In this document: one piece after another, positions 3,039 through 45,454 of the stretch
Layout of the letters: every line of letters begins with the position of its first letter
Position numbering within the stretch: the first letter of the stretch is position 1
DNA from: Pirellulales bacterium
GTDB lineage: Bacteria > Planctomycetota > Planctomycetia > Pirellulales > Lacipirellulaceae
Direction of reading: 5' to 3'
NCBI GenBank assembly: GCA_050248495.1
Contig: JBFWSG010000004.1
Span: forward strand, 23,686-87,685
DNA length: 64,000 nt
Program-made: the position numbers and the translations under genes
The notes under the pieces: model-generated
What the model was told of the DNA's origin: nothing
What the model saw: only the letters and a program-made list of their open reading frames with translations
Database searches by the model: none

Positions 3039-3135
3039 TCAGCCGCCGAGCACCGCGGTGAGCTTCTCCTTCGTCGCCGGGTCGTCGAACTCCAACTTGC
3101 CGAAGCCGCGATGGGCGCCGGCCGCGACTGCCGCA
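3039..3135 (-). pseudogene. 3'-terminal fragment (about 31 codons plus stop) of the receiver-like gene found intact at 5242-5610
   Basis: About 95 bp are roughly 90% identical to 5242-5340. The fragment translates to AAVAAGAHRGFGKLEFDDPATKEKLTAVLGG*, against AAVAAGAHRGFGKLEFDDPATREKLAAVLG* in the intact gene. Upstream of the fragment the similarity stops abruptly. The rest of the 3039..3689 minus-strand track ORF is antisense to the sigma-factor gene. Confidence 0.65.
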
Positions 3136-10527: not shown

Positions 10528-11319
10528 ATGAAGTGGAACTTTTTGGGAGCGCTCATGATGAGCATCGCCCTGGCGAGCCCAAGTTTTGCGACTTGCTGCT
10601 TGCTGGACAAGATGCTCGGGGGCGGCTGCGGATGCTGCGAAGAGGCAAGCTGCAGCTGTTGTGAAAAATCGTGCTGCTGCGAGGAAGCGTCCTGCGGTTG
10701 TGAAGACAGCTGCTGCTCCTCGTGCGGCTGCGGCGGCGGTGGCTGCTGCGTGCTCGATCGGCTGAGCGGCTTGTTCAGCTGTCATCACGGCTGCGGCTGC
10801 TGCGAAGCCAGCTGCGGTTGTGAAGAAGCTTCTTGCTGTGCCGAAGCCTCGTGCGGCTGCGAAGATAGCTGCTGCTCGAGCTGCGGTTGCAAGAAGGGCT
10901 GCTGCCTGTTGGACGGCCTGTGCGGCATGTTCAAGTGTCATCACGGCTGCGGCTGCTGCGAAGCCAGCTGCGGTTGTGAAGCTTCTTGCGGTTGCGAAGC
11001 CTCGTGCGGCTGCGAAGATAGCTGCTGCTCGAGCTGCGGCTGCAAGAAGGGCTGCTGCCTGCTCGGTGGCCTGTGCGGCCTGTTCGGTCACAATCACGGC
11101 TGCGGCTGCTGCGAAGCCAGCTGCTGCTGCGAGCCCAGCTGCGGCTGTGCCTCGTCGAGCTGTGGTTGCGAAGGTGGTGGCGACAGCGCCGCTCCTGCCG
11201 AAGAAGCTGCTCCTGAGGAGAACGCTTCGGCTCGCATGATCCCGCCGTTGCCGATGGCTGATCCGAATGCCTCGATCAGCCGCGAGCGCGACGTCGTCCG
11301 CACCAGCTTCACCCGCTAA
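10528..11319 (+). CDS. secreted, extremely cysteine-rich (about one-third Cys) tandem-repeat protein, metallothionein-like
   Basis: A GGAGA Shine-Dalgarno precedes the ATG at 10528. The signal peptide is MKWNFLGALMMSIALASPSFA. Three ~50-aa repeats follow (CHHGCGCCEASCGCE(E)ASC..EDSCCSSCGCKKGCCLL.GLCG.F) with CxC/CC motifs, Glu and His, and a Cys-free acidic tail. Confidence 0.8.
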   Translation: MKWNFLGALMMSIALASPSFATCCLLDKMLGGGCGCCEEASCSCCEKSCCCEEASCGCEDSCCSSCGCGGGGCCVLDRLSGLFSCHHGCGCCEASCGCEEASCCAEASCGCEDSCCSSCGCKKGCCLLDGLCGMFKCHHGCGCCEASCGCEASCGCEASCGCEDSCCSSCGCKKGCCLLGGLCGLFGHNHGCGCCEASCCCEPSCGCASSSCGCEGGGDSAAPAEEAAPEENASARMIPPLPMADPNASISRERDVVRTSFTR

Positions 11320-11356: not shown

Positions 11357-11396
11357 AGCCTGCCTCGGACCACAAGTCCGAGGCAGGCTTTTTTTG
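11357..11396 (+). terminator. rho-independent terminator of the Cys-rich protein gene
   Basis: cagcctgcctcggac-cacaa-gtccgaggcaggct is a 14-bp perfect stem. It is followed by tttttttg. Confidence 0.8.
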
Positions 11397-11420
11397 TGCC
11401 CGCACTCGTTCCATTTTCTG

Positions 11421-11510
11421 CCGCAGATGTCGCAGATGGCCGCAGATAACGCTCGGCGAAATCTGCATTCACCTAGGCTCCCAAATCTGCGAACATCTGC
11501 GCAATCTGCG
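11421..11510. promoter_or_regulatory. heptamer dyad array: 3 direct CGCAGAT units followed by 4 inverted ATCTGCG units
   Basis: The direct units are ccgcagat gt cgcagat ggc cgcagat. The inverted units are aaatctgc, aaatctgcg, acatctgcg and caatctgcg. The array ends about 30 bp before the ATG at 11540. Confidence 0.55.
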
Positions 11511-11539
11511 GCAACAAAATACCAAGGCCTCTGGCAAAC

Positions 11540-12325
11540 ATGTCCGGCAAAGGAATAGTCCTGGCCACGCTCCTACTGACCGCGATCTGCGGCGAGTCGT
11601 TCGCCCAGGGCACTTCTGCGCCGGTTGCTGCTCAAACGCCGACCGCCACCTCGCCCGACAAGATCGCCGCGGCTGTCGCCCAACTGATCGCCGACGCGAT
11701 CCCCCGCGAATACGAACGCAAGAAAGACTGGGGCCGCCAAAAGGAAATCACCACCGGCCTCCACAGCTACGGCAACTTCTTCAAATTCGACATGCACCGC
11801 ACCAAGACGGCGGTCAACCACGGCGTCTGGAAACACTATCGCGCCACACTCGTTGATCCGCAGCACAATTTACAGGTGCGGATCGACAACCTCCGCAGTG
11901 TGGCCGCCGGCCGTATTGCGTTCACGCTATTTGTGACGACGAAACTTCACGGCTGGGGACGGGCCAAAGTCTACGACCGAGGCGTCCACGTCATCGCGCT
12001 GGAAGCGGAGACCGACGCCAAGGTCAGCCTCTGGCTGGACTGCGAAATCGCCCTCGAAGCCGCGCCCGCGTCGTTCCTCAGCGGCATTGCGGTCCGGCCG
12101 CAGATCACTTCCGCCCGCATGAATCTCGATGAATTCCGCCTGACTCGGATCAGCGACGTCAGCGGTCCCGTGGTCCGCGAGCTGGGCGACGGGATCAAGC
12201 ACCTGATCGAAGACGAGCTCAACGGCCCGAAACTCGCCGCCAAGCTGAACCATTCGATCGAGAAGCGCCGCGACCGCCTGGTATTCACGCCCGATATGTT
12301 GCTGGGCGCGACACCCAACAAGTGA
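11540..12325 (+). CDS. secreted hypothetical protein
   Basis: The signal peptide is MSGKGIVLATLLLTAICGESFAQG. The ORF is clean, 261 aa, with GC-rich third positions. Confidence 0.7.
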   Translation: MSGKGIVLATLLLTAICGESFAQGTSAPVAAQTPTATSPDKIAAAVAQLIADAIPREYERKKDWGRQKEITTGLHSYGNFFKFDMHRTKTAVNHGVWKHYRATLVDPQHNLQVRIDNLRSVAAGRIAFTLFVTTKLHGWGRAKVYDRGVHVIALEAETDAKVSLWLDCEIALEAAPASFLSGIAVRPQITSARMNLDEFRLTRISDVSGPVVRELGDGIKHLIEDELNGPKLAAKLNHSIEKRRDRLVFTPDMLLGATPNK

Positions 12326-12424: not shown

Positions 12425-13297
12425 TCACGAAGCCATCGTCCCCTTGATGGCGATGAACTGTTCCTGCGGCAAGATCATGTTGCGAATCCGTAGGCCAAAC
12501 TTGTCGCCGACCTTCACCACTTCGCCCATCGCAATCGGCTGATCGCAGACCACCAGGTCGAGCATCTCTTCGCACGATTTGTCGAACTTAATGATCGCAC
12601 CGGGCACCAGCTCGCGGATCTCTTGCACCGTGTGCTTCTGCGAGGCCAGATTCACCGCCACCGGCACCTGTACCTTCAAAAAGCTACGGCAATATTTCGG
12701 CAGCCGCGCCAGATCGTCCCATTCCTCTTCGGCCTGCTCCAAGGGGGGCGGTACTGGCTTCGCTGGAGCCGCCGCTGCCGCCGCCTGTTGGGGCAACAGC
12801 TCGGCATGCTTGCCAACCGGCCACAACACACTCCAGCGCCCTTCGTTGGCTTCCTGCTGAATTGTAATCGAAACATGCGTCGCACCCGCAGAGAGCTCCG
12901 CGCGGCCGAGCGCCGCCGCCACGCTCTCGAGCGGCACGATGTGATACTCGTCGGCCACGTGCGACGCCGGCAGAAGCAGCATGCTCAGCTCTTGCGCGAG
13001 GGTGCTCAGCCGGCTCTTGCCTGTCGCGTCCGGCGCCACATACCAAGGCGGCAACATCCCCGACGCTTCCGGCAACACCGCCACCGCCGCCGAATCGCCG
13101 CAGCGGAACACCACGGCGAGGCCCCCGCCGTCGAATCCGTCGGGGGGCGACTCTGGATCGTAGGCCGCCGGATCGTGGACCGTCGCCCCGGCAAATTCAC
13201 CGTCAAACGCTCGGGCCATCGCGCCCAGGATCTCGTCCGCCGAAGCCCGGCAGGCCAGCACGAGATCTTCGGCGATGTCCGGTGTAAACGCGGCCAT
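12425..13297 (-). CDS. fliN: flagellar motor switch protein FliN/FliY family (C-terminal SpoA domain)
   Basis: The C-terminus VPVAVNLASQKHTVQEIRELVPGAIIKFDKSCEEMLDLVVCDQPIAMGEVVKVGDKFGLRIRNMI matches the FliN/SpoA consensus (..PIAKGEVVVVDDNFGVRITEI.). Confidence 0.65.
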   Translation of the reverse strand: MAAFTPDIAEDLVLACRASADEILGAMARAFDGEFAGATVHDPAAYDPESPPDGFDGGGLAVVFRCGDSAAVAVLPEASGMLPPWYVAPDATGKSRLSTLAQELSMLLLPASHVADEYHIVPLESVAAALGRAELSAGATHVSITIQQEANEGRWSVLWPVGKHAELLPQQAAAAAAPAKPVPPPLEQAEEEWDDLARLPKYCRSFLKVQVPVAVNLASQKHTVQEIRELVPGAIIKFDKSCEEMLDLVVCDQPIAMGEVVKVGDKFGLRIRNMILPQEQFIAIKGTMAS

Positions 13298-13529
13298 GGA
13301 TTTTGCGCGCAGCGACAGGATGTGGGGAAAAGCAGGACCATCCGCGCACCCTCGCAGCCGATGCGCGGACAGTCACAGCATTTATCGGCCGCCGCGGTCG
13401 TCAAACTTGCCGCAGTCTCCCTCAATCCCGCCGCCGCCGCCCGAACCTGGGACCGAGTTGCTCGATCTCGTATAATTGCCTGACGATTTCGCATGCTGGC
13501 ACTGCTGGCCCCACGGCCGAACAAACTCC

Positions 13530-15075: not shown

Positions 15076-15364
15076 CGGTCTCTCCTCGGACGCCTCGAAT
15101 GCGTCCTCTCACCTCGGGGGGAACTGACGGCGATCGGCCCGACACCCGGAACCGAATTGCCGTCGAAGATGAAGTTGCAGCCCCCGTGCCGCGCCGCAGC
15201 GCAGTCGCCCTAACCGTCGCCGCAAGAGCCATTTACAACGACGCGCGAAATCTTGCAGGCACCGCCCACACCGCGAAAAGCGCCTACAAAGCGACGACGC
15301 CCTGTATCAAAGGCGAACCATTCACAAGTACCCAGTGCCCAGTACTCAGTACTGCCTTTCCCAC

Positions 15365-15396
15365 TCCCTGCCCCCTGCCCCCTGCCCCCTGCTCCC
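15365..15396. repeat. simple tandem repeat (CCCTGC)x4 overlapping the 3' end of the OYE gene region
   Basis: The sequence is ccctgccccctgccccctgccccctgctcccc. Confidence 0.4.
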
Positions 15397-15398
15397 CT

Positions 15399-16961: not shown

Positions 16962-16977
16962 ACTGGTCGCTTCAGCG
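16962..16977. repeat. variant copy of the GCTTCAGC-loop hairpin element (GGTCGC-TTCA-GCGACC)
   Basis: It belongs to the same family as 17039, 18013 and 18249. Confidence 0.5.
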
Positions 16978-17038
16978 ACCAATAACACCCGCCACACTTC
17001 AATCGTCCACACCCGCTATACTACCCCCACCACCCCAG

Positions 17039-17060
17039 GCGAGCTCGCTTCAGCGAGCGT
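17039..17060. repeat. hairpin repeat element GGCGAGCTCGC-TTCA-GCGAGCG (copy 1)
   Basis: The element occurs as three near-identical copies (17039, 18013, 18249). Each has a GCTCGC/GCGAGC stem with a TTCA loop. Confidence 0.7.
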
Positions 17061-17064
17061 GTAG

Positions 17065-17166
17065 CTCCACCCTCAACCCTCCACCCTCAACCCTCCACCC
17101 TCAACCCTCCACCCTCAACCCTCCACCCTCAACCCTCCACCCTCCACCCTCCACCCTCCACTCCAC
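17065..17166. repeat. C-rich tandem minisatellite: (CTCCACCCTCAACC)x5 then (CTCCACC)x3
   Basis: It lies directly upstream (within 5 nt) of the ATG at 17171. Confidence 0.8.
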
Positions 17167-20097: not shown

Positions 20098-20106
20098 GCG
20101 GACATT

Positions 20107-20529
20107 TTACACCGCGCACGTACTTCCACCAGCGTATTCCCGATACTGGCATTCCTCGATCTCGAACGAATCGATATGCCGTGGAGCGCTAACTTCCTTG
20201 AGCTGCAATTCGCCAATGGCGATGTTCTTCCCGGCGGCAAACATCTCAAAAAACTTGCCGTCAGCCGGGCTGAAAAGATTGGCCGGATTATCGTGCTCGA
20301 TTGAAGCCTCGATTTGAAGAGCGATTGCATCGCCCAATTGATCCAGCGCTTCCTCGCGGGTATCCCCGTCACCCATCAAATCGAATTCAAGGCAATGCGC
20401 AACCCAAGCGTTCCCTTCCTTGTAGAAGACGATGCGGATCGGCAATCGCATTGACTCTGCCATGAACTTCCTTACACGCGGCGCAACAAAACGGCCCGAC
20501 CTGAACGGCTGGGCCATGATCGTTTCCAT
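20107..20529 (-). CDS. hicB: HicB-like antitoxin (UPF0150/HicB N-terminal domain)
   Basis: PIRIVFYKEGNAWVAHCLEFDLMGDGDTREEALDQLGDAI is HicB-like. The start is likely METIMAQ at 20529, with an AGGAAA Shine-Dalgarno; the track start is 20568. Confidence 0.55.
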   Translation of the reverse strand: METIMAQPFRSGRFVAPRVRKFMAESMRLPIRIVFYKEGNAWVAHCLEFDLMGDGDTREEALDQLGDAIALQIEASIEHDNPANLFSPADGKFFEMFAAGKNIAIGELQLKEVSAPRHIDSFEIEECQYREYAGGSTCAV

Positions 20530-20686
20530 CTTTCCTGGTTTGACATCCCGATCATCCTGACAGTCCATTTAATCGGGTCGCTAATGCAACTATATCCAAC
20601 CAAACGGCCGAAAGCAAAAGACTGGTCATGCCCCCCAGAAGTGCCGTCAAATTGATGAAAACACCGAGAAATACGCGGCCGGCGCC

Positions 20687-20726
20687 CGCGCGGATAGCTT
20701 TCAAAGCTTTGAAAGCTATCCGCGCG
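20687..20726. promoter_or_regulatory. 40-bp perfect palindrome CGCGCGGATAGCTTTC-AAAGCTTT-GAAAGCTATCCGCGCG
   Basis: Two 16-nt arms around a palindromic 8-nt core were verified by eye. It lies about 160 bp upstream of hicB and about 340 bp upstream of the HNH gene. Confidence 0.75.
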
Positions 20727-21062
20727 CACACGATCTGTCAACGGATGGCGGGTGCCAGAGGTCAAAATGAGGGCGCCAACTCCGTTGTAAATCACGAGCT
20801 CGGCCGCTATGATGACGCCCGTAGAACGAAACGCTGGCCTCTGGGGTGTTGCACTCGCCACCCCAGGGGCCAACTTCGTTTTTCGACATTGACGAAAATG
20901 CGATAGCACTGTTAGACTGTTCACGTTGTAGGAGTCCTGTCCGAACGGATTCGAGCGTTTCGTTCTACAAGCCTCTCGCTCAGCCGCCTCTGGCTCGCAC
21001 TCCTGGTATTTGTTTCCGCGCACCCGGTGCGCGCTGACATCCTTTTTAAAGGAGTGCATGTC

Positions 21063-21359
21063 ATGTATTGCAATTGGACGCATGAGGAACGGTCTGCTGT
21101 GTGGTTCAAGGGTCGCGCTGTCCCCGGCGTCGATGGCGACAAGTGGCGTCTCGACGTTTGCGGAGCTTGGATCGGCTGGCAGTTCTACGGCAACCGCAAC
21201 TCGCAGTATGGATGGGAAGTGGACCACATTGATCCACGCGGCGGCGACGGGCTTCACAATCTTCAGCCGCTCCAATGGGAAAACAACGTAGCCAAAGGCG
21301 ACGGACACTTGGCATGCGTTGTTACGGCATCGGGCGTGGAGAACGTTGCCGTTCGTTAG
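21063..21359 (+). CDS. HNH endonuclease, small stand-alone
   Basis: An AAAGGAG Shine-Dalgarno lies 7 nt upstream of the ATG at 21063. The HNH motif is YGWEVDHIDPRGGDGLHNLQPLQWENNVAKGD. Confidence 0.7.
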   Translation: MYCNWTHEERSAVWFKGRAVPGVDGDKWRLDVCGAWIGWQFYGNRNSQYGWEVDHIDPRGGDGLHNLQPLQWENNVAKGDGHLACVVTASGVENVAVR

Positions 21360-21567
21360 TCCTTTCCCGCGTTCCCTCCGGATGACAGAGCGCGCTCGTG
21401 GCTAGATCGAAGTCCGCGCGCACAAACACTCTGTCGTCCTCTGGGACGGCATCCATAATCCGGCGGATGCACTCACAGAGTGCGTCCGCCTCTTCGTTTC
21501 CAAGGGTCAACGGGTAGTCCTGCTGCCGAACGCTTTCAAGCAGCAATCGGATTGTCGCGTTATTCAA
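21322..21567 (-). CDS. hypothetical small protein (81 aa)
   Basis: An AAGGAG Shine-Dalgarno lies 4 nt upstream of the ATG. It converges on, and overlaps, the 3' end of the HNH gene. Confidence 0.4.
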   Translation of the reverse strand: MNNATIRLLLESVRQQDYPLTLGNEEADALCECIRRIMDAVPEDDRVFVRADFDLATSALCHPEGTRERTNERQRSPRPMP

Positions 21568-21727
21568 TGGTGCTCCTTAGCCATCCAGCGCGGTCGCCCG
21601 GAATGCCAGGCGAAGGGGGCGGGATGGTCGCAGGGCCGCAGAATCGCGGCAAGACCGCAGAGACGCACTCGGCGTGCCGGCGGCGACATTGTGGTAAGCT
21701 GGGCGAAATTCCGCCGGGGGTCCGACT

Positions 21728-21782
21728 CGCACACTTACATCCAGCACCACCTCGCTTTGGGTGGTGCTGGATTAAGTGTGCG
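21728..21782. terminator. long hairpin with a 23-bp stem and one bulge, directly downstream of the 21788..22432 gene
   Basis: cgcacacttaCatccagcaccacc-tcgctttg-ggtggtgctggattaagtgtgcg. Its left arm is part of a 39-bp direct repeat shared with 25788-25825. Confidence 0.55.
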
Positions 21783-21787
21783 GGGAT

Positions 21788-22432
21788 TTACGCGTGCCGA
21801 TAGCGTAGGTCGGGTATTCGGACGCCATAGCCAGCGCAGACATCGCACTCAGCTTCTATGCGCCCGAACTTATGGCCAGTGCCCTTGCATATCTGGCATT
21901 TGGGATAGTGGGACAATTCACCGGGAAGCTCGCCGGTGCCACCACACTTGCTGCAAATAGCTTCTATGCGATTCCATTTCAGACCAGAGCCTTTACACAG
22001 AGGGCATCTCATGGGCGGAATCGAATCTGCCGGATCGTTGCTTCCCGTTTTGCCTTCACGCACCATTCTTCGGTGAAGCATGAAATCGGCGATGGTTGCT
22101 GGTGTAAATCGCGGGATTTTAGGGAGGGCGGTAGACTTCACTACTGTGGTAATGGTCGCTGGCGATGGCGAAGCTGTAACTCCGTGAAATGTTTCCAGAA
22201 GTCCCCGCAATTTCGGAAGATTGACAACGACAATGATCGTCAGCCCAAGTAGGCAAAGTCCGGTTCGTACGATGTCATGGCTAAGAATCGTTGCGACAGC
22301 GTTGAACGCCATCCCCCAATTCCGGATGTCATCCGGCAGGCCACCCAAGCCAATAATACCAATTACAGTACCTAGCACGTTCCCTACTCGGCGCACGTTG
22401 CGCCACGGTGGTACGTTCCAATCGACAGCCAT
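21788..22432 (-). CDS. membrane protein (2 predicted transmembrane helices) with four DnaJ-type CXXCXGXG zinc-finger repeats
   Basis: The repeats are CPLCKGSG, CSKCGGTG, CQICKGTG and CDVCAGYG in the C-terminal 80 aa. The transmembrane helices are VLGTVIGIIGLGGL and LCLLGLTIIVVVNL. GC is about 52%. Confidence 0.6.
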   Translation of the reverse strand: MAVDWNVPPWRNVRRVGNVLGTVIGIIGLGGLPDDIRNWGMAFNAVATILSHDIVRTGLCLLGLTIIVVVNLPKLRGLLETFHGVTASPSPATITTVVKSTALPKIPRFTPATIADFMLHRRMVREGKTGSNDPADSIPPMRCPLCKGSGLKWNRIEAICSKCGGTGELPGELSHYPKCQICKGTGHKFGRIEAECDVCAGYGVRIPDLRYRHA

Positions 22433-22518
22433 GCCATGCTCCTACGACTTGACGCGCGCAGCCGTAGGCCATACCATGCAATCACCTAGATTGTGCATGG
22501 CCTACGTGGTCATTCAAA

Positions 22519-22551
22519 AGCTGACGGCTCCACCCGTCAGCTTTTTTGTTG
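22519..22551. terminator. hairpin plus T-run (agctgacgg-ctccac-ccgtcagct-ttttttg)
   Basis: The 9-bp stem lies between the zinc-finger membrane gene and the transposase. It is palindromic and could function on either strand. Confidence 0.45.
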
Positions 22552-22601
22552 CGTGAATTATATCGACTCTCTGCACAAAGCTACAGTGGCGGGGGCACCA
22601 C

Positions 22602-23561
22602 CTAGTCCGCCATCACATTCTCAATCATTTCTCGCACCGACCACACCTTTGTTGCAACGCCGTGGGCAACGGCCGGCGTCAGCCCTTTCAATGTCTTGTG
22701 TTGACGGCAATAGTTGTAATGACAGAAGTACACGGCCAGCGCGGCACGGTGGTTGTTCCACTTCTTTGAGAAGCAGTAGGTCAAGCGGCCCATGCGCTTC
22801 ATGTGGGTGCGGATGCTGCCGTTCATTCGCTCAACGTGCGAGGTGCATATCTGATCTTGTTGGAATGGCGTGCCGTGCATCGGGGTCCGGCTGGCCCCTA
22901 TTATCCGAGCCGGTGAGTACCGGCGCTGGTCCTCGTAGACATTGACGCCGTATATCTTTTGCATCACGCCGTGGTCGACGCGGTGTCCAAGCTGCTTTTT
23001 GATTTCGCTTGGATAGCTCCGCCAGCCGTCGCTACTAACGTGGAAGTGACCGAACGTGGCCCGGTCCAGTTTGGCGATGAACTGCTCGGTGTGCTGCTGG
23101 CTGCGGCGGCCCATGTGCCAAGTAATGAGCAGCTTTGATTGGCGGTCGATGGCGGTGTAGCAATAGCTGTCGCCGCAGCCGCCAACCATCTTCTGCGCTT
23201 TTGTGGTCGCGTTTTTTGCTAAAATAAATTGCCAAATTTCGTCCACCTGGGTGTCGCTGACAAACACGTCCTTAATGTGTTCGGCCATGTACTTTTCGCA
23301 GTGCTCGCCGAGCATCGTGAGCAGCGAGAGGATCGTCATTAAGTCGGTGCCGGTGAAGCGGGCGGTGGCGCGAACATTCATGCCCTCGCACAGCAGCTCG
23401 ACGATCTTGGCGGCTTGCTCAACGCCGATCCGCATGCCGCCCAGCATGGCGGTGGATTCGGTCCAGGACGCGCCGCAGCTCTTGCAGCGGTAGCGGGTGG
23501 CCCCGGCCTTAGTTTTCCCATTCGTGCGGCGGTTCTCATGCTGACAGACGGCGGCAATCAT
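22602..23561 (-). CDS. DDE transposase, IS1595-family-like
   Basis: An N-terminal zinc ribbon (RYRCKSCGASWTE) is followed by a DDE-like core (DEIW..., AIDR, SDGWRSY). The C-terminal motif is YFCHYNYCRQHKTLKGLTPAVAHG. Confidence 0.75.
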   Translation of the reverse strand: MIAAVCQHENRRTNGKTKAGATRYRCKSCGASWTESTAMLGGMRIGVEQAAKIVELLCEGMNVRATARFTGTDLMTILSLLTMLGEHCEKYMAEHIKDVFVSDTQVDEIWQFILAKNATTKAQKMVGGCGDSYCYTAIDRQSKLLITWHMGRRSQQHTEQFIAKLDRATFGHFHVSSDGWRSYPSEIKKQLGHRVDHGVMQKIYGVNVYEDQRRYSPARIIGASRTPMHGTPFQQDQICTSHVERMNGSIRTHMKRMGRLTYCFSKKWNNHRAALAVYFCHYNYCRQHKTLKGLTPAVAHGVATKVWSVREMIENVMAD

Positions 23562-23756
23562 TGCGAAACTTCCCCGTTCTTAGGGCCTTCGCTATGATTC
23601 AGTTCTCTAGGCTGGAATCTGGCGAAAGCCGGTTCTAGTTGCCCCCGGTCGCGTGCCAACGCTTCCGGGGGTTTACTTTTGCCTACATTTATTCTACCCA
23701 TAATTAATCGGCATTGCAAGGGTTGACGCAAGATTATTTATGGGTATATTTATGGC

Positions 23757-23933
23757 ATGGAAAACAAACGAGGCAGGCCGCCTAAGGCCCCAGAAGACCG
23801 CAGGACTGAGGACATCAAAATCCCACTGAGCGAAGCGGAGAAGCAGCAGATTCAATCTGCGGCCGAATCCGACGACGCCAAGCCCGTTACATGGGCCAGG
23901 AACGTGCTCTTGAGGGCCGCCAAGAGGCGGCTG
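23757..23933 (+). CDS. small ribbon-helix-helix DNA-binding protein (MobC/CopG-like), 58 aa
   Basis: This ORF is absent from the track because it is under 60 aa. It translates to MENKRGRPPKAPEDRRTEDIKIPLSEAEKQQIQSAAESDDAKPVTWARNVLLRAAKRRL. The RGRPPK, K-I-P-L-S-x-x-E and VTWARNVLLRAA pattern is typical of MobC-type RHH proteins. Confidence 0.5.
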
Positions 23934-24199
23934 TGAGCGGAGAGCAGGGGTTACGATCCCAGCCGCGAAAAGTTTGCACGGCCCCCTTCGGCGGGTTATA
24001 AACCACGCTACGCCAGCCAAGACGCGGGCCGCTCTCCGATAGAGAACGGTCTGTTGAGGCTTAGAATGTGGCGAACATGTTTCTAAGACACCTACGCTAC
24101 TGCTTGGTTCGCGGCTGGTTATTGATGCACCCAGAGCGATGCGCCAGAGGCCGTTATGGACGATTGATAAGGCGCACCCGAAGATACAGGCAAAGTAGG

Positions 24200-25699
24200 A
24201 TGACTACGGTCGATGCAGCGATCAATCCAAGTAAAAGTTTACCCGACCACTGGAGCGAATCGATGTCCGACATCACGTCGGTAAACGAGCAAATCGCTGC
24301 ATTGACGCAACGATTAGCCAATGTGAATGAGTCGGCAAATGCGTATGCGACTGCCGGACACGTGTTCGCCGCGGCCATAGCGCTCTTCACGGCCGCAGTA
24401 TTCTTTACATCGTATTTGGGGGCAAGTAAAACGCGGCAGGTTAAGAAAATCAGCGACGAACTTGCAACTGCTAGGGAAGCGCAGCTGAGTTTGATTCTTG
24501 CTGACAAAGACGCCAAGATCGGTGCAGCTAACGCGACGGCAGCTACAGCGAATGCCGAAGCAGCCAAGGCAAACGAGGGCCTCGCAAAGGCAGGCCTCGA
24601 TATTGAGGACCGCAAGAATGAGAACCTGAAATTGGAGTCGCAGGTTACCACTCTCCGAACAGCGGCCGCCAAAGCTGATGCAGCACTTGAGGAAACCCGA
24701 ATTAAGGCGGCAGAAGCGCTTGAGGGTCTCGCGGAAACCGGGGAATGGCAGCGAATACAAGAAATGATTCGCTCGGAGATCGAAGAAGAGCTGACCCCGC
24801 GAGGCGTTAACATAGAGTTGGCTAGTGCCAACATTCTAAAAGAGTTTCGCGGGACGAAATTCTTCGTGACAACGCCAACAGAAGTAGAGCCGATAAGGCT
24901 GGGTAAGGGAATTGAAGATTTGCTGTTAGAGTCAGGGTGGGAGCGTGTCGCGCCACTCTCGGCGATTGTCGAATCCGAAGAGTTTGAATTCGATAACAAC
25001 GTGACATTCAAGTCAAACTTTCGATCCGAGGAAGAATTAAAACCGGCAGTATATGCACTTGCCATCGTCCTGCAAAAAGAGCGAATTGACTGTTTCCATT
25101 TCATCGACACTTCTCCCAAGAGAGGGCAACCGCCAATTCCTAAAGGTGCCATTAGCATCGTCGTGGGACCAAAGCGCACAACGTACTCCAGGCAATTGAC
25201 CGACAGGGCGGACTCACCTCGGTGGGATGCTCGGCAGAAAGCGATGGTAGAGCTTGAGGGCCGCCGCGAAACAAAAGCACCACCAGATGCCTCCCTGCTC
25301 GGCCCCATGTCTGAAAATGCGTGGCGCGTCTTTGCAGAATGCGCGCCAACTTCAGGAGACGCAGTGTTAGTTGGAAATTCAATGAACGATCCGGCGGATG
25401 AATGGGTCGTCGGCGTCCGCGATGGATTGTTGGTGGCCGGATGGACCGTGGTATCGACCGTGCTATTCGACGAACAGCGTATGCTCGGCATTGAGCGCAA
25501 CGCCGTAATTCTTCGTAAGAACGCGCCAGCAGCACGCAGGCAACAGGCGGAGAAATTGCACAAGGCGCTCTCTGATGCCGGGTTCCAGCCAGTTTTTGTG
25601 GAGACAGAATCGCCGCCGAAAGGATTCGCGGTGTGCGTGTTAATTGGCGGTCCCGGAGATGGCGCGCAGGGCGACACTGGCCCGGCCAAACCGGAGTAG
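24200..25699 (+). CDS. hypothetical membrane-anchored coiled-coil protein (about 500 aa)
   Basis: The start is likely MTTVDAAI at 24200; the track start at 24068 gives an implausible Arg-rich leader. It has one transmembrane helix (HVFAAAIALFTAAVFFTSYL), about 120 aa of Ala/Lys/Glu coiled coil, then a C-terminal domain of about 300 aa with two related sub-modules. No family was recognised. Confidence 0.6.
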   Translation: MTTVDAAINPSKSLPDHWSESMSDITSVNEQIAALTQRLANVNESANAYATAGHVFAAAIALFTAAVFFTSYLGASKTRQVKKISDELATAREAQLSLILADKDAKIGAANATAATANAEAAKANEGLAKAGLDIEDRKNENLKLESQVTTLRTAAAKADAALEETRIKAAEALEGLAETGEWQRIQEMIRSEIEEELTPRGVNIELASANILKEFRGTKFFVTTPTEVEPIRLGKGIEDLLLESGWERVAPLSAIVESEEFEFDNNVTFKSNFRSEEELKPAVYALAIVLQKERIDCFHFIDTSPKRGQPPIPKGAISIVVGPKRTTYSRQLTDRADSPRWDARQKAMVELEGRRETKAPPDASLLGPMSENAWRVFAECAPTSGDAVLVGNSMNDPADEWVVGVRDGLLVAGWTVVSTVLFDEQRMLGIERNAVILRKNAPAARRQQAEKLHKALSDAGFQPVFVETESPPKGFAVCVLIGGPGDGAQGDTGPAKPE

Positions 25700-25787
25700 A
25701 AAGTGTTAATCACGGCGCACCCCCTGCGGAGTCGCCGCTTTTCGGACTCGCGGAACGCACCCACGACCGGACAAGGCGCCTCACTGC

Positions 25788-25825
25788 TGCCGGGGGACCG
25801 ACTCGCACACTTAATCCAGCACCAC
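25788..25825. repeat. direct repeat of 21713-21751 (gccgggggWccgactcgcacacttaMatccagcaccacc)
   Basis: Of 38 nt, 37 match copy A with one extra base, and the match extends a further 10 nt (gccctttgg vs tcgctttgg). The two copies bracket 4.07 kb holding the zinc-finger membrane gene, the transposase, the RHH gene and the coiled-coil gene. Confidence 0.6.
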
Positions 25826-26431
25826 CGCCCTTTGGCACACCCGTTGCATCTAATCCGTCGTCGCCTGAACGATCAGGCACCAAGCGTTCGGAACAAACGC
25901 TCGGGGCCGAACAGAGAAGAGGCATTTTGTCTGGGGTCGGTCGGCGAAGAGGCAAATCTGCCGTGTTCGGATCTGCATATCAGGAAAGAAGTTAGCGAGA
26001 TCTGCCCACCTCCCACAGAAACTCGCAAACCAGGCGCATTTCCGACACGTCACGGGCGAGTCGCGGTCTTCCGAGAGGCTAGACCACGACTCGCCCATCT
26101 TTTTTGACTGTTGCAAAATCGTACATGTGTATTTTTCCAATACACTTTTCTGGGACACTTCGTCACCCACCTGCCAGTCGACAAATCACGTCCGCAGAAT
26201 TTTTCCAAGATTTTCTCGGCCGCCAATTCGCGGAATCGCTCGACCCGCAAATCCACGACTGCTCAACTGTGTGTCCCCCGGTTGAGCAGTCGCAAAAAGC
26301 CGGCAAAAAGTGGTAGCCGCCCGTTGAACAGTCGCCCCCTTTTTTTCCGACACCTCGCACCGCCTGCGGACGTTAGAACGTGGGGCAGCCAAATCCGCGC
26401 GGTCGATCATAATCAAGCAATGAGGATCTCA

Positions 26432-26491
26432 CCGCTAATCCGCGCTAATGGACGCTAATTTCCATTAGCGCTCCTTAGCGACAATTAGCGG
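26432..26491. promoter_or_regulatory. heptamer dyad array: 3 direct CGCTAAT units followed by 3 inverted (A)TTAGCG units
   Basis: ccgctaat ccgcgctaat ggacgctaat ttcc attagcg ctcc ttagcg acaattagcg. The centre (cgctaat-ttcc-attagcg) is a perfect palindrome. The array ends about 25 bp before the GTG start at 26515. Confidence 0.55.
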
Positions 26492-26514: not shown

Positions 26515-28275
26515 GTGGCGCACGTCACTCGACCATCGCAGGTGCTCGCATTCGCCGCGGTCGCACTGTTGACACAGGCTGCATTCTTTCATCGCACGGC
26601 TCGCGCCGCGGACCAGGTCGTCGCCAGCGCTGCGACGGCGCCCGCGCGATCGGCCGGTGACGCCAACACGCCGCCGGAAGTGGCCCTGATCGACGAGGCG
26701 ATTTCGGCCGCCTGGGCGGACCAGAATCTCGCTCCCTCCCCGCCGGCTAGCGATGGCGAGTGGTGCCGCCGCGTGTATCTCGACATCCTGGGCCGCATCC
26801 CGACCGTCACCGAGCTGCGCCAATATTTTGCCGACCGGAAACGCGACAAGCGGGCCCGGCTGGTCGACCGGTTGCTCGGCCCCGAATATCGCGACGAGTA
26901 CGTCCACAACTGGACGACGATCTGGAGCAACGTCCTCATCGGCCGGACGGGCGGCACCGATCGCCGCTCGCTCACCAGCCGCGAAGGGATGCAGGTGTAT
27001 CTGAGCGAGGCGCTGGCTTACAACCGGCCGTACGACCAGATGATGCGCGAGCTGGTCACCGCCACGGGCGCCTGCCGGCCGGAGGACAAGAATTTCAACG
27101 GCGCGGCCAATTTCCTGGCCGACAAGATGGAAGAGAATGGCGTGCAGGCCACGGCCAAAACGGCCCAGATTTTTCTGGGCATGGCGGTGCAGTGCACGCA
27201 GTGTCACAACCATCCCTTCAACGAGTACCAGCAGAACCAGTTCTGGGAGCTCAACGCCTTCTTCCGCCAGACCCGCGTGCGGCGGATTCGGCTCGATGAC
27301 CAGCGGCAGCGGTTCGCGGGCCGCGTGGTCGACCGCGACTACCGCGGCGAGACGGGCGACGTTGCGAAAGCCGACCTGTTCTACGAGCTCCGCAACGGCC
27401 AGATGAAGGTCGCCTACCCGGTATTCGTCGACGGCACGTCGCTGGCCGAAGTCTACAAGGAGAAGGGTGAGGATTTTGGCGATCATGGCAAACTCAGCGA
27501 CGTCAACCGCCGCGAGGAGCTGGCCAAGTTGATCGCCGGGTCGCGTGAGTTTGATCGGGCAATCGTGAATCAGATTTGGGGCCATTTCTTCGGTTACGGA
27601 TTCACGAAGCCGGTCGACGACATCGGCCCGCACAACACGCCGTCCCACCCCGAGCTCCTCGACCAGCTCGGCCAATCGCTGCGCCGCGCGGAGTTCGACC
27701 TCAAGCAACTGATGCGGTGGATCGCGCTCTCGGAAGCGTACAGCCTGTCGAGCCGCACGACGAAGAAGAACGAGGCCGACGATCCGGAGCTGGGAGCGCG
27801 GCCGATGTTCACCCATTTCTACCTGCGGCAGATGGAGGCCGAGCAGCTGTACGAGTCGCTGCTGGTGGCGACCGCGGCCGACCAGACGGTGCAGAGCGAC
27901 GAGCGACGGGACGAGGTCCGCGAGCGGTGGCTGCGACAATTCAGCAAGGCTTTCGGCACAGACGACGGCGGCGAATCGACGAGTTTTAATGGCACGATCC
28001 CACAGGCGCTCGCGTTGATGAACGGGCCGCTGGTAAAACGGGCCACGGGCAACCAGGGGGGCAGCATGCTGGCCTGGGTGGCCGAGCATCCGAAGATGAA
28101 CAGCGCCGAGAAGATCCGCTACTTGTACCTGGCGGCGCTGTCGCGGCGACCGACGAAACCGGAGATCGCCTTGTCGAACGATCTGCTGGCGGCCCGCAAC
28201 GGGAATGTCGGGGCGGCGCTGCAAGACATTTGGTGGGCACTTTTGAATAGTAACGAGTTCATATTGATACACTAA
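26515..28275 (+). CDS. DUF1549/DUF1553 domain protein (planctomycete PSD1-like family)
   Basis: CTQCHNHPFNEYQQNQFWELNAFF is a DUF1549 signature. WALLNSNEFILIH is the DUF1553 C-terminal signature. A signal peptide is present and the gene starts with GTG. Confidence 0.8.
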   Translation: MAHVTRPSQVLAFAAVALLTQAAFFHRTARAADQVVASAATAPARSAGDANTPPEVALIDEAISAAWADQNLAPSPPASDGEWCRRVYLDILGRIPTVTELRQYFADRKRDKRARLVDRLLGPEYRDEYVHNWTTIWSNVLIGRTGGTDRRSLTSREGMQVYLSEALAYNRPYDQMMRELVTATGACRPEDKNFNGAANFLADKMEENGVQATAKTAQIFLGMAVQCTQCHNHPFNEYQQNQFWELNAFFRQTRVRRIRLDDQRQRFAGRVVDRDYRGETGDVAKADLFYELRNGQMKVAYPVFVDGTSLAEVYKEKGEDFGDHGKLSDVNRREELAKLIAGSREFDRAIVNQIWGHFFGYGFTKPVDDIGPHNTPSHPELLDQLGQSLRRAEFDLKQLMRWIALSEAYSLSSRTTKKNEADDPELGARPMFTHFYLRQMEAEQLYESLLVATAADQTVQSDERRDEVRERWLRQFSKAFGTDDGGESTSFNGTIPQALALMNGPLVKRATGNQGGSMLAWVAEHPKMNSAEKIRYLYLAALSRRPTKPEIALSNDLLAARNGNVGAALQDIWWALLNSNEFILIH

Positions 28276-28282
28276 AGGGAAT

Positions 28283-28364
28283 GACGAATGACCAATTCCT
28301 AATGACGAATGAATACGGTAGGCGGACGTACATACGTCATTGGGCATTCGGAATTCGTCATTCC
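28283..28364. repeat. TGACGAATGA / TCATTCGTCA repeat cluster (family also at 44897-44995 and 63480-63580)
   Basis: aatgacgaatgacc...taatgacgaatgaatac...cgtcattggg...ggaattcgtcattcc. The last unit is the exact reverse complement of ggaatgacgaattcc at 44899. Confidence 0.6.
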
Positions 28365-28382
28365 GCAGCGAAGGTTGCCACT

Positions 28383-43906: not shown

Positions 43907-43945
43907 GGGAGTGAGAACGATGAGCGGTGAATGATGAGTGATGAA

Positions 43946-44893
43946 CTAGGCCAGACCAGGCGAATCGATCATGGGCGATGGCGTTAACAGCGCGGCCGAC
44001 GTTGTCGAGGGCGCGCCCGTCATGTAAGCGACAAAAATCTCTTCGAGCGACGGCGTCCGCGACTCCACGGCGGTGACGCCGGTCGTAAAGCGGAGCGCAT
44101 CGATCGCCGCTTCATCGAGGCCGCGGGTGATGAGCTCGTATTGCCGCCCTCGATGCCGTTCGTGAATCACCTGTCCCTCCAGCGGCGGCAGCGGGCGATG
44201 CGGGTCCTCCATCGTCACGGTGACTTGCCGCGTGCTGCGTTTGATATCTTCCAAACGGTCGACCAGGAGCACGCGGCCGGCGTGGACGATCGCAACGATA
44301 TCCGCCACCCGTTCCACCTCGCCGATCTGGTGACTGGAGAGGAGCACCGTTCGTCCCTCGGCGGCGACGTCGACCATGCTTTCGAGAAACTCACGGCGGA
44401 CCATCATGTCGAAGCCGCTCGTAGGCTCGTCCAGGATCAATAGCTCCGGCTTGTGGGCCATGGCGAGCGACAACGCCACTTTGCCGCGCATGCCCTTGGA
44501 CATCTGACTGAGCTTGCGGTCGAGCGGTACGCGGAAGCCCTCGACCAGGCGGCGGAATTCGAATTCGAAGCCGTCTGGATAGAAGCCCGCGGTAAACCAG
44601 CCGATCTCGGCGGCGGTCATCCAGTCGTAGAGCGTGGGCCGCTCCGGCAGGTAGCCCACTCGGCGACGAATTTCAAAGCCCTCGCGGCGGCTATCGAGCC
44701 CCAGCACGCGGACCTCGCCCGCCGTGGGCGACGCCAGGCCGAGCATCAACCGGATCGCCGTCGTCTTGCCGGCGCCGTTTTCGCCCAACAGCGCGAAGAC
44801 CACACCGGGCGGCACCGCGAGCGAGACCTGGTCCAGCGCGGCCTGCTGGCCATAGAGCTTGGTGACGCGATCGAGCTCGATAACCGGGTTCAT
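43946..44893 (-). CDS. ABC transporter ATP-binding protein
   Basis: Walker A (GENGAGKTT), the ABC signature (LSQMSKGMRGK), Walker B (LLILDEPTSGFD) and the H-loop are all present. Confidence 0.9.
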   Translation of the reverse strand: MNPVIELDRVTKLYGQQAALDQVSLAVPPGVVFALLGENGAGKTTAIRLMLGLASPTAGEVRVLGLDSRREGFEIRRRVGYLPERPTLYDWMTAAEIGWFTAGFYPDGFEFEFRRLVEGFRVPLDRKLSQMSKGMRGKVALSLAMAHKPELLILDEPTSGFDMMVRREFLESMVDVAAEGRTVLLSSHQIGEVERVADIVAIVHAGRVLLVDRLEDIKRSTRQVTVTMEDPHRPLPPLEGQVIHERHRGRQYELITRGLDEAAIDALRFTTGVTAVESRTPSLEEIFVAYMTGAPSTTSAALLTPSPMIDSPGLA

Positions 44894-44896
44894 AAG

Positions 44897-44995
44897 TTAC
44901 TCCAGGAATGACGAATTCCCAATGACGAATGACGAATGACGAATGAGGTTTCGTGGTGCCGAGCTTCGTCATTAGTCATTCGACATTAGTCATTG
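44897..44995. repeat. TGACGAATGA / TCATTCGTCA repeat cluster
   Basis: ggaatgacgaattcc caatgacgaatgacgaatgacgaatga ... cgtcattagtcattcgacattagtcattgac. Confidence 0.6.
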
Positions 44996-45008: not shown

Positions 45009-45401
45009 TTAATTCTTCTTCGCACGACGCAACGTGGCTATTTCCGCGCGGACCAGTTGTTCGATTTCGGCGTTGTCGAGGCCGCTGGTGGCCGCTTCTT
45101 CCAGGACCAATTTGAGTCGGGCGCGGATCAGTTTGGTCCGTTCCGACTGGCACTGGCGACGGGCGGCCGGCGCGACGGCCAGGCCCGTGCCGCGGACCGA
45201 TTCGAGCACGCCGTCGTCTTGCAATTGGCGATAGGCACGGGCGACGGTGTTTGGATTGATCGCCAGGTCGCGGGCCAGCTCGCGGACGCTCGGGACCAGC
45301 TCGCCCGACGCCAGGGCCCCGTCGGCGATGGCGAACTTCACCTGCCGCACGATCTGGTCGTACACGGCCAGCCCGTTATGTGCGTCGATGGTGAAGAACA
45401 T
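45009..45401 (-). CDS. GntR-family transcriptional regulator, YtrA subfamily
   Basis: The winged HTH is PSVRELARDLAINPNTVARAYRQL. A short C-terminal helix is present. It leads an ABC-transporter operon, as in ytrA-type systems. Confidence 0.85.
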   Translation of the reverse strand: MFFTIDAHNGLAVYDQIVRQVKFAIADGALASGELVPSVRELARDLAINPNTVARAYRQLQDDGVLESVRGTGLAVAPAARRQCQSERTKLIRARLKLVLEEAATSGLDNAEIEQLVRAEIATLRRAKKN

Positions 45402-45433
45402 CTGCTGGGCCTCCGACGAAGGGAGCGGTCGAC

Positions 45434-45454
45434 TGTACTAGCGTACTAGTACGG
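45434..45454. promoter_or_regulatory. putative YtrA operator: TGTACTAG-C-GTACTAGTAC
   Basis: It contains the perfect 10-bp palindrome GTACTAGTAC (45443-45452) and a direct GTACTAG repeat, about 35-55 bp upstream of the GntR start codon. Confidence 0.5.

Follow-up and report, generated by a model that had tools for sequence, protein, structure and literature searches.

What are the arrays of short repeated words that stand ahead of two genes of a Pirellulales bacterium of the family Lacipirellulaceae? In the 64-kb stretch of contig JBFWSG010000004.1 that was analysed, called here the window, the heptamer CGCAGAT is repeated in direct and then in inverted orientation at 11422-11510 (array A), and the heptamer CGCTAAT at 26433-26490 (array B). 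The initial annotation had compared them with multi-site operators for an oligomeric regulator, placed upstream of secreted-protein genes, or with a small mobile repeat family. We found that A and B, together with two further arrays of the window (C and D), are copies of dispersed, labile elements with heptamer arms, which occur across phyla and in phages. The arms of these elements are the same structures that bracket two kinds of mini-genes, one encoding the GxxExxY protein and the other the '23S rRNA intervening sequence protein' (S23p, PF05635).

Four heptamer dyads between genes

Array A is formed by two arms around a non-palindromic centre. The left arm (11422..11447) contains three copies of CGCAGAT, starting at 11422, 11431 and 11441 and separated by gt and ggc; the right arm (11485..11510) contains three copies of ATCTGCG, starting at 11485, 11495 and 11504 and separated by aac and ca, and the spacing is thus mirror-symmetric between the arms (2,3|3,2). 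The centre (11448..11484, 37 bp) holds a degenerate inverted copy, ATCTGCa, at 11461-11467, so that the inverted copies are three exact and one imperfect, and not four exact ones as had been stated. Array B presents three direct copies of CGCTAAT (starts 26433, 26443 and 26453), a centre of 4 nt (ttcc), and the inverted copies ATTAGCG (26464), cTTAGCG (26474) and ATTAGCG (26484). Its period is exactly 10 and its spacing 3,3|3,3; of the three inverted copies two are exact and one is a variant, a minor correction to the three listed at first.

A k-mer scan of the window revealed two more dyad arrays, both with the word GAATGAC and a period of 7. In array C (28279..28367) the tandem GAATGAC heptamers lie at 28279-28312 and the inverted GTCATTC-type copies at 28338-28367. 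Array D (44906..44994) consists of GAATGAC x5.9 (44906-44946) and GTCATT x4 (44965-44994), and GGAATGACGAATTCC is common to both. Unlike A and B, arrays C and D have truly tandem heptamer units. The centres of the window arrays measure 4-37 bp.

The total of 13 CGCAGAT matches in the window equals the shuffle expectation (14.25), and 6 of these 13 are packed into the 89 bp of array A. A generic scan for any 6-mer present as a direct pair plus an inverted pair detected 28 arrays in 756 kb (the window and related loci) and none in each of five shuffles of the sequence. Arrays A and B are therefore confirmed as real and far beyond chance. In all four arrays the minimum free energy stem joins both arms, with z-scores from -5.2 to -7.7 against shuffles. 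The bulged hairpin of array A, whose predicted stem spans 11419 to 11513, folds at -50.1 kcal/mol (z -7.7), that of array B at -33.1 kcal/mol (z -6.0), and those of C and D at -41.5 and -40.1 kcal/mol, respectively.

All four arrays sit between protein-coding genes, and not in helix 25 or 45 of 23S rRNA; an Rfam search of the whole window at gathering scores gave no rRNA and only generic miRNA-hairpin noise, as did the E-value mode on array A. Array A lies between the intrinsic terminator of the upstream gene (11357..11389, plus strand, a 14-bp stem with a T run), which is conserved in relatives without the array, and the next start codon, ATG 11540, from which it is separated by 30 nt. The gene that follows (11540..12325, plus strand, 261 aa) belongs to no Pfam family, has a signal-peptide-like N-terminus (MSGKGIVLATLLLTAICGESFAQG) and is conserved across Lacipirellulaceae. 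The array A locus was also present, with a single nucleotide different, in two other assemblies. Only 25 nt lie between array B and GTG 26515, with which a PSCyt2/PSD1 (DUF1549/DUF1553) gene begins (26515..28275, plus strand). Array C occupies the intergenic stretch from the stop of this gene (28275) to the start of a DUF1501 gene (28383), and array D is flanked by a GntR-family gene (45009-45437, minus strand) and by an ABC ATPase gene (start 44893, minus strand). In view of these contexts the proposed link to secreted-protein genes fails: the gene after array C is the DUF1501 gene, and the one after array D encodes a cytoplasmic ABC ATPase.

Recurrence and turnover of the dyads

A search for further occurrences, as suggested when the arrays were first described, showed that the pattern recurs: CGCAGAT-N2-3-CGCAGAT-N2-3-CGCAGAT gave at least 120 matches in metagenome contigs and at least 120 in IMG/VR viral contigs. 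Among the matches listed, host GC ranged from 39 to 71%, 238 of 300 arms had non-identical spacers, and 126 dyads were present. A scrambled word of equal composition, taken as a control, gave 30 loci with 31 arms, of which 30 were nothing but 9-mer tandem repeats, identical in their spacers too. As the spacers differ while the heptamer is constant, it is the heptamer itself that is constrained and not the repeat unit, and plain slippage is thereby excluded.

An origin of the arrays in place, through replication slippage and template switching of the kind known from short tandemly repeated repetitive sequences (STRR) and long simple sequence repeats (LSSR) of cyanobacteria, without any trans-acting partner or mobility, consequently seems improbable, since slippage would copy the spacers as well. 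It could account for the abundance of tandem heptamer repeats in the window, for the variable number of arm modules between near-identical contigs and for the different words at one orthologous site (both described below), and heptamers are the commonest long simple sequence repeat unit (PMC4679880). It does not account for the recurrence of one word, together with one ATC/AAC outer flank, across phyla and phages, for arms placed precisely at the ATG and the stop of two specific mini-gene families, or for copies with identical centres at unrelated sites of one genome, which were observed in two cases (L177 and L235; L numbers designate the collected loci).

The word of array B was less frequent: CGCTAAT gave 37 loci, with 12 arms of differing spacers and two dyads. 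Nevertheless, the proposal that the CGCAGAT and CGCTAAT arrays are related is borne out, as both recur elsewhere with one architecture and with AAC/ATC...GTT/GAT ends. The words that co-occur in the class fit CRCRRAK, among them CACAGAT, CACAGAG, CACGGAG, CGCGGAT, CGCGAAG and CACGAAT. Arrays A and B show the arm architecture of this class, namely 2-3 direct plus 2-3 inverted copies, 2-3-nt spacers and mirror spacing. Their outer flanks agree only in part with the family flank, (TT)ATC or AAC...GAT or GTT, with two of three bases in array B (cAC...GTt) and a single one in array A. The word of arrays C and D, three times repeated, was found in 26 viral-contig stretches, mostly as direct arrays just before start codons and in a few cases as dyads.

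The CGCAGAT architecture occurs in Planctomycetota, Bacteroidota, Gemmatimonadota, Desulfobacterota (Desulfobacteraceae) and phage contigs. BLAST against PLSDB found a perfect 3+3 CGCAGAT dyad on plasmid pHALHY03 of Haliscomenobacter hydrossis (Bacteroidota), between SDR and SIS-domain genes, and one such dyad on plasmid 1 of Gemmatirosa kalamazoonensis (Gemmatimonadota). The 92 kb of pHALHY03 hold two dyads in total, and the second one, of the TTCAC-CACGACG type, lies between DUF1501 and DUF1553 genes. A heptamer dyad in the DUF1553/DUF1501 spacer was thus seen twice, at 28279-28367 of the window and at 13232-13336 of the pHALHY03 locus (L370); this shared position may be a coincidence or a favoured site. 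Contigs with multiple copies were genuine phages, with HK97-type capsid or Mu-like portal and protease genes, and carried at least three copies each, with related centres. Some heptamer-pattern matches in IMG/VR (L188, L246, L293, L295, L299 and L306-L308) lie on contigs labelled as giant-virus metagenome-assembled genomes (GVMAG), which could be either true giant-virus or mis-binned bacterial DNA.

From Lacipirellulaceae and relatives, 45 orthologous loci of the 261-aa gene were taken. The spacer between the terminator and this gene has no array in L003, L004 and L005 (71-83% protein identity), and L006 presents only a degenerate one. In these loci CGCAGAT arrays were found at non-orthologous places, two in L014 and one in L016, together with CGCTAAT in L016, CGCGGAT in L019, CACAGAG in L007, L014 and L018, and CACGGAG in L027; in L018 a CGCAGAT-type array is nested inside a CACAGAG-type one. 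The 45 loci also hold period-7 dyads with other words. An empty-site search showed that the dyad at 5595-5648 of L014 is missing at the orthologous site of L011. At one intercistronic junction, L036 is empty (about 20 nt), L027 carries a CACGGAG dyad and L034 an unrelated GTGAGTA dyad. Furthermore, the near-identical metagenome contigs L375-L377, with Wzz/GNVR, GxxExxY and DnaJ genes, differ between positions 870 and 1130 in the number of modules of about 77 nt, each of which bears ATCTGCG/ATCTCCG arms, that is, in a copy-number polymorphism. This behavior is typical of insertional or rapidly turning-over elements. The proposal of a mobile repeat family is borne out as regards a dispersed and labile character, transposition itself being putative.

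Because sites are gained and lost, and unrelated arrays occur at one orthologous junction, the arrays are not conserved operators. According to the operator explanation, an oligomeric transcription factor would occupy the six sites, all on one face of the helix, and would thereby control the secreted-protein gene downstream; we regard this explanation as quite improbable. It is true that a period of 9-10 bp sets the sites on one face of the DNA, that the heptamers are conserved and the spacers are not, that A and B lie 25-30 nt before starts, and that, array A being downstream of the terminator, a promoter must overlap it. However, a scan for sigma-70-like promoters around A and B detected none, centres go down to 3-4 bp, array A is absent before the orthologous gene of the relatives just mentioned, C and D precede the genes already named, and the words also occur in intercistronic, convergent and 3'-end positions, in phage structural modules and beside unrelated genes, in at least four phyla.

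The anatomy of the dyads was studied in 30 exact 3+3 dyads among the matches listed. Spacing was mirror-symmetric in 27 of the 30, as (2,3|3,2), (2,2|2,2) or (3,3|3,3). The outer flank has the consensus TT-A-T/A-C, and complementarity falls to background further out; the spacers are 57-68% complementary, compared with 37-46% in a partner-shuffle null, and the edges of the centres are not complementary. Among the matches listed, 77 distinct dyads had two or more exact copies in each arm, and their centres measured from 3 to 242 bp (median 44).

The outer flank brings to mind the DnaA box, whose consensus is TTATCCACA. The outer copy TTATCCGCA is one base off this box, the outer-flank consensus reads TT-ATC-CGCA, and CACAGAT-type variants yield a perfect TATCCACA. 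We considered this resemblance and set it aside. A platform for a chromosome-organising or replication protein appears very improbable, given that the outermost copy alone resembles the box, that the word family (CGCTAAT, CACGGAG, CGGAAT) diverges from it, and that the array density, the presence in phage structural operons and the bracketing of mini-genes have no precedent for DnaA-box clusters.

With respect to placement, among the matches listed the dyads lie 2-25 nt past a stop codon and 8-40 nt ahead of the next start, and convergent contexts outnumber divergent ones by 15 to 6; these positions refer to a greedy longest-open-reading-frame gene set, as the set of all open reading frames (ORFs) of at least 100 aa proved too noisy in high-GC DNA. 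This placement is what could be expected if the arrays were RNA-level elements that benefit the host, that is, hairpins or single-stranded heptamer runs before starts, selected as signals for mRNA processing, stabilisation, termination or translation control and possibly bound by a conserved RNA-binding protein, with the mini-genes reusing them or hitch-hiking. The hairpins are very stable; in a Mu-like phage the dyads follow the gene with a Mu-like protease (gpI) domain and the next gene, of 312 aa; and direct-only GAATGAC and CTCCACC arrays stand right before starts, like the TAACTGA repeats (PMC4679880). We nonetheless consider this explanation unlikely, although it deserves more weight than operators or slippage. 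Arrays are gained and lost at orthologous sites, and unrelated words occupy one such site, which argues against a conserved role of the arrays in the service of the neighbouring genes. Identical heptamers with free spacers, and one word shared across phyla, are not explained by selection for a hairpin. In addition, there is no excess of G.U pairs on the sense strand and no Rfam family.

Mini-genes between the arms

At two independent loci an ORF of about 147 aa lies between distant arms and matches PF13366 (PDDEXK_3), which corresponds to NCBIfam TIGR04256, the 'GxxExxY protein'. No transposase was found between distant arm pairs, where the ORFs were GxxExxY or ordinary phage or host genes. 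Among the loci selected by their arms, all 7 GxxExxY ORFs adjoin arms. Against the bias of such a selection, 14 GxxExxY loci were chosen by protein only: two from IMG/VR, four from PLSDB and eight independent contexts obtained by exact-protein look-up. The IMG/VR look-up with a GxxExxY alignment gave only these two loci, the pattern being too narrow. In 10 of the 14, inverted heptamer arms abut the start and stop codons, as in the Desulfobacteraceae cassette L366, with ends ATCCGCAGATtaCGCAGATtacCGCAGATtaATG...TAATCTGCGaaaATCaGCGtaATCTGCGGAT; two of the other four are partial and two have direct-repeat flanks. The cassette of Bacteroides finegoldii, between radA and the next gene, ends in TTCAC-CACAGAG...CTCTGTG-GTGAA, and an ORF-less dyad in a Lacipirellulaceae metagenome-assembled genome has the same TTCAC-CACAGAG ends.

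The GxxExxY family comprises at least 8000 clusters at 90% identity. A comparison with PDB sequences gave nothing significant (T7 endonuclease I, E = 0.72). At 6902-7396 of L162 the GxxExxY ORF runs through into the adjacent heptamer array, resulting in a C-terminal SASSAD-type peptide repeat, which shows that arrays can be absorbed into coding sequence. Many of the cassettes obtained by protein (L363, L367, L373, L375 and L378) are located within operons for the synthesis of polysaccharides (CpsB/CapC, epimerase to Bac_transf, Wzz, DegT, PMT_2), a location that may reflect an insertion preference or a sampling bias from closely related top matches.

The second mini-gene came into view in L368, where a PF05635 (23S_rRNA_IVP) gene comes after the GxxExxY cassette and long heptamer arrays. 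In plasmid loci from Nostoc, Treponema, Bernardetia, Euhalothece, Monoglobus and Chlorohelix, chosen by tblastn with the protein, inverted tandem-heptamer arrays flank the PF05635 gene in 6 of 6 cases, and the word is a different one at each locus. Arrays C and D of the window present the architecture of these PF05635 loci minus the gene.

A proposed family of selfish hairpins and its relatives

The reading that we favour, and that we hold to be moderately probable, is that arrays A and B belong, without an ORF of their own, to a widespread palindromic intergenic class, selfish hairpin elements resembling the intervening sequences (IVS) of rRNA, and that C and D represent a sister class. We would classify the elements as a new form, located outside rRNA and devoid of an ORF, of IVS-like selfish hairpins or of the hairpins formed by repetitive extragenic palindromic sequences (REPs and REPINs). 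An element consists of two inverted arms on either side of a variable centre, and each arm repeats a single heptamer word 2-4 times. In the first class the words are of the CRCRRAK type, with 2-3 unconstrained spacer bases, mirror-symmetric spacing and an ATC/AAC outer flank, and in the full-length form the arms abut the start and stop of a gene of about 125 aa for a PD-(D/E)XK nuclease (GxxExxY, TIGR04256). In the second class the heptamers are tandem (period 7), with a private word for each element, and the full-length form encloses the gene of the four-helix-bundle protein S23p. The window copies may then be gene-less derivatives, or unoccupied versions, of such cassettes, comparable to miniature inverted-repeat transposable elements (MITEs) or REPINs and their coding partners. 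The elements come and go between genes, most often in a gap of a few dozen bases that separates a stop from the next start.

The heptamers would be the recognition sites of a trans-acting protein that spreads or maintains the elements. By analogy with REPs and their REP-associated tyrosine transposases (RAYTs), the GxxExxY nuclease is the prime candidate. Once transcribed, the arms could pair into a bulged stem of about 25 bp, a predicted substrate of ribonuclease III (RNase III); this is suggested because the RNase III-excised IVS of Coxiella 23S rRNA has GACAGAT heptamers in its terminal stem. Effects on neighbouring genes, such as cleavage or stabilisation of mRNA, would be a by-product and not a dedicated regulation.

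The IVS of Coxiella burnetii is the closest experimentally studied relative of the window elements. It has been called a selfish element (Warrier et al. 2016, PMC4990558), and its terminal inverted repeats pair into a stem of about 28 bp that encloses a mini-ORF (PMC4990558). At the 5' end, ahead of the S23p ORF start, GACAGAT stands in tandem, twice in some strains and three times in others; the element was shown experimentally to be excised by RNase III, which cuts at the first repeat, and its S23p ORF is dispensable and decaying (PMC4990558). The inverted-repeat stem, the near identity of its word with the CGCAGAT/CACAGAT of the array family, and the PF05635 genes bracketed by inverted heptamer arrays outside rRNA, as in the six plasmid loci, are points in common. 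On the other hand, the window elements lie between protein-coding genes and have no ORF, the heptamers of A and B are spaced (period 9-10), and the mini-gene of their coding relatives encodes a PD-(D/E)XK nuclease instead of S23p. Excision was demonstrated for Coxiella, and for the window elements RNase III cleavage is a prediction.

The REP/REPIN-RAYT systems (Bertels & Rainey 2011, PMC3116915; Di Nocera 2013, PMC3733652) offer a second parallel. They too are abundant short extragenic hairpin palindromes without target-site duplications, found mostly at gene ends and inside operons, with a small nuclease-type gene between inverted copies of the dispersed repeat and with gene-less copies that far outnumber the gene (PMC3116915, PMC3733652). 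However, the window arrays have no GTAG/CGTC tag, their arms are iterated heptamers with free spacers and not one imperfect palindrome, and the partner protein is of the PD-(D/E)XK fold (PF13366/TIGR04256) and not a Y1 HUH transposase. Moreover, each REP family is specific to a lineage, while the heptamer word is shared across phyla and phages.

Heptanucleotide repeats of cyanobacteria, the STRR, were reportedly described by Mazel et al. in 1990. Direct TAACTGA repeats are known in Beggiatoaceae, Cyanobacteria and Bacteroidetes (MacGregor 2015, PMC4679880). Like the window arrays, these are intergenic heptamers, often a few bases before starts, with no known mechanism and with a patchy occurrence over distant phyla that suggests horizontal spread; the PF05635 flanks of Nostoc and Euhalothece (GACTTGC, CTGGTCA) also resemble STRR-type arrays. 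They differ in having been described as direct tandem arrays, and the dyad architecture, the spaced class with free spacers and the mini-gene link were not found in PMC4679880 or in the literature searched.

The window has direct arrays of its own. At 17065..17161 (plus strand) CTCCACC and CTCAACC alternate in 14 copies; this array, which is not a dyad, stops 9 nt short of ATG 17171, much as the Beggiatoaceae TAACTGA repeats stand direct-only right before a start codon, and it belongs with the other heptamer arrays to one phenomenon. Two hairpins of that intergenic region share one loop (16966-16981, GGTCGC-TTCA-GCGACC; 17043-17058, GCTCGC-TTCA-GCGAGC) and may be a separate REP-like family of short palindromes. 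Two adjacent direct arrays, AGTACCC x3.7 and CCCTGCC x4.6, occupy intergenic DNA at 15327..15398. The close relative L003, which lacks array A, has AGTACCC-like heptamers (gtacccagtaccaagtacttcgtacc) at 3100-3130 of the corresponding intergenic region, with the same word as the window array at 15327-15352. A short array (43909..43946, GATGAGT/GAGTGATGAACGAT) is located where two minus-strand genes adjoin, at the stop codon of the ABC ATPase (43946) and the start of the gene beside it. Within the gene that precedes array A, a tandem repeat of 153 bp (10741-11124; 2.5 copies, 88% identity) has GCTGC-rich repeats of 18 bp nested in it, and these GCTGCTGCGAAGCC-type repeats are shared by the L003-L005 orthologues.

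MITEs are a further point of comparison. The Correia elements of Neisseria are MITEs, short, non-coding and intergenic, with terminal inverted repeats, which are co-transcribed with their neighbours and have been reported to be cut by RNase III. The dyads are likewise short, non-coding, bounded by terminal inverted repeats and dispersed in intergenic DNA, but they have no target-site duplication, their centres are highly variable (3-250 bp), and no DDE-transposase partner with the same ends was found. A DDE transposase gene of the IS type, with weak Pfam matches to IS1/rve, is present in the window (minus strand, 22602-23561), and no heptamer arms were seen near it. It lies in a stretch with low GC at third codon positions and few confident ORFs (20100-26450), at whose right-hand edge array B is located; two long overlapping ORFs of this stretch (24068-25764) have no Pfam match.

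Several observations weigh against the reading of the arrays as selfish hairpin elements. Tests for target-site duplication (k=2-8) were positive in 0-1 of the 30 dyads, no excision footprint or transposition event was found, and the empty and filled sites of the L011/L014 type have no clean base-level boundaries. The outer flanks of array A (tGC...GCa) are not the ATC/AAC of the family, with only the C at -1 in agreement, and at the Fusobacteria and Persicobacter GxxExxY loci the flanks are direct and not inverted. G.U-tolerant pairing on the sense strand was unsupported (2 G.U versus 11 A.C mismatches), in a comparison underpowered by crude gene calls and small numbers, and the non-complementary spacers, together with uniform words in each arm, are not predicted by hairpin selection alone. 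As to the order of events, the mini-genes may have invaded existing arrays, or the arrays may be the gene-less derivatives. Finally, jackhmmer found no GxxExxY ORF in the window or in L003-L047, and PF05635 ORFs were likewise missing from the window and from loci L003-L358 when searched with a hidden Markov model of the six plasmid proteins. Since the Lacipirellulaceae sequence searched, the 64-kb window plus 0.75 Mb of loci, contains neither gene, the cognate protein in the source genome is putative.

A broader proposal, which we put forward tentatively and with clearly less confidence than the reading of A and B as selfish hairpins, is that heptamer dyads, GxxExxY nucleases and S23p four-helix-bundle proteins may form one unrecognised class of tiny selfish cassettes, present in at least six phyla (Planctomycetota, Bacteroidota, Gemmatimonadota, Desulfobacterota, Cyanobacteriota, Spirochaetota and others) and in phages. 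The nuclease would read its own word and spread both the cassette and the far commoner gene-less hairpins, and RNase III would excise the insert from RNA, making it harmless in operons and even in 23S rRNA; STRR, TAACTGA-type repeats and rRNA IVS would be facets of the same class. The literature searched, with incomplete coverage that makes an earlier description possible, has no paper that ties GxxExxY or heptamer dyads together in this way; queries with the literal repeat strings returned no papers, and the topics of Planctomycetes, heptamers and STRR returned analogues only.

As regards the window, its arrays should be annotated as repeat elements, and a secreted-protein regulon should not be deduced from them. 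If the link between arrays and mini-genes holds, two very large 'hypothetical' families, GxxExxY and S23p/four-helix-bundle, would gain both a function and a substrate, and it would give an origin to the rRNA intervening sequences and to the heptanucleotide repeats that have served for decades as fingerprinting markers without explanation. It would also define a hairpin element that is tolerated in operons and in phage structural modules, with a bearing on annotation, on maps of mRNA processing and possibly on its use as a tool.

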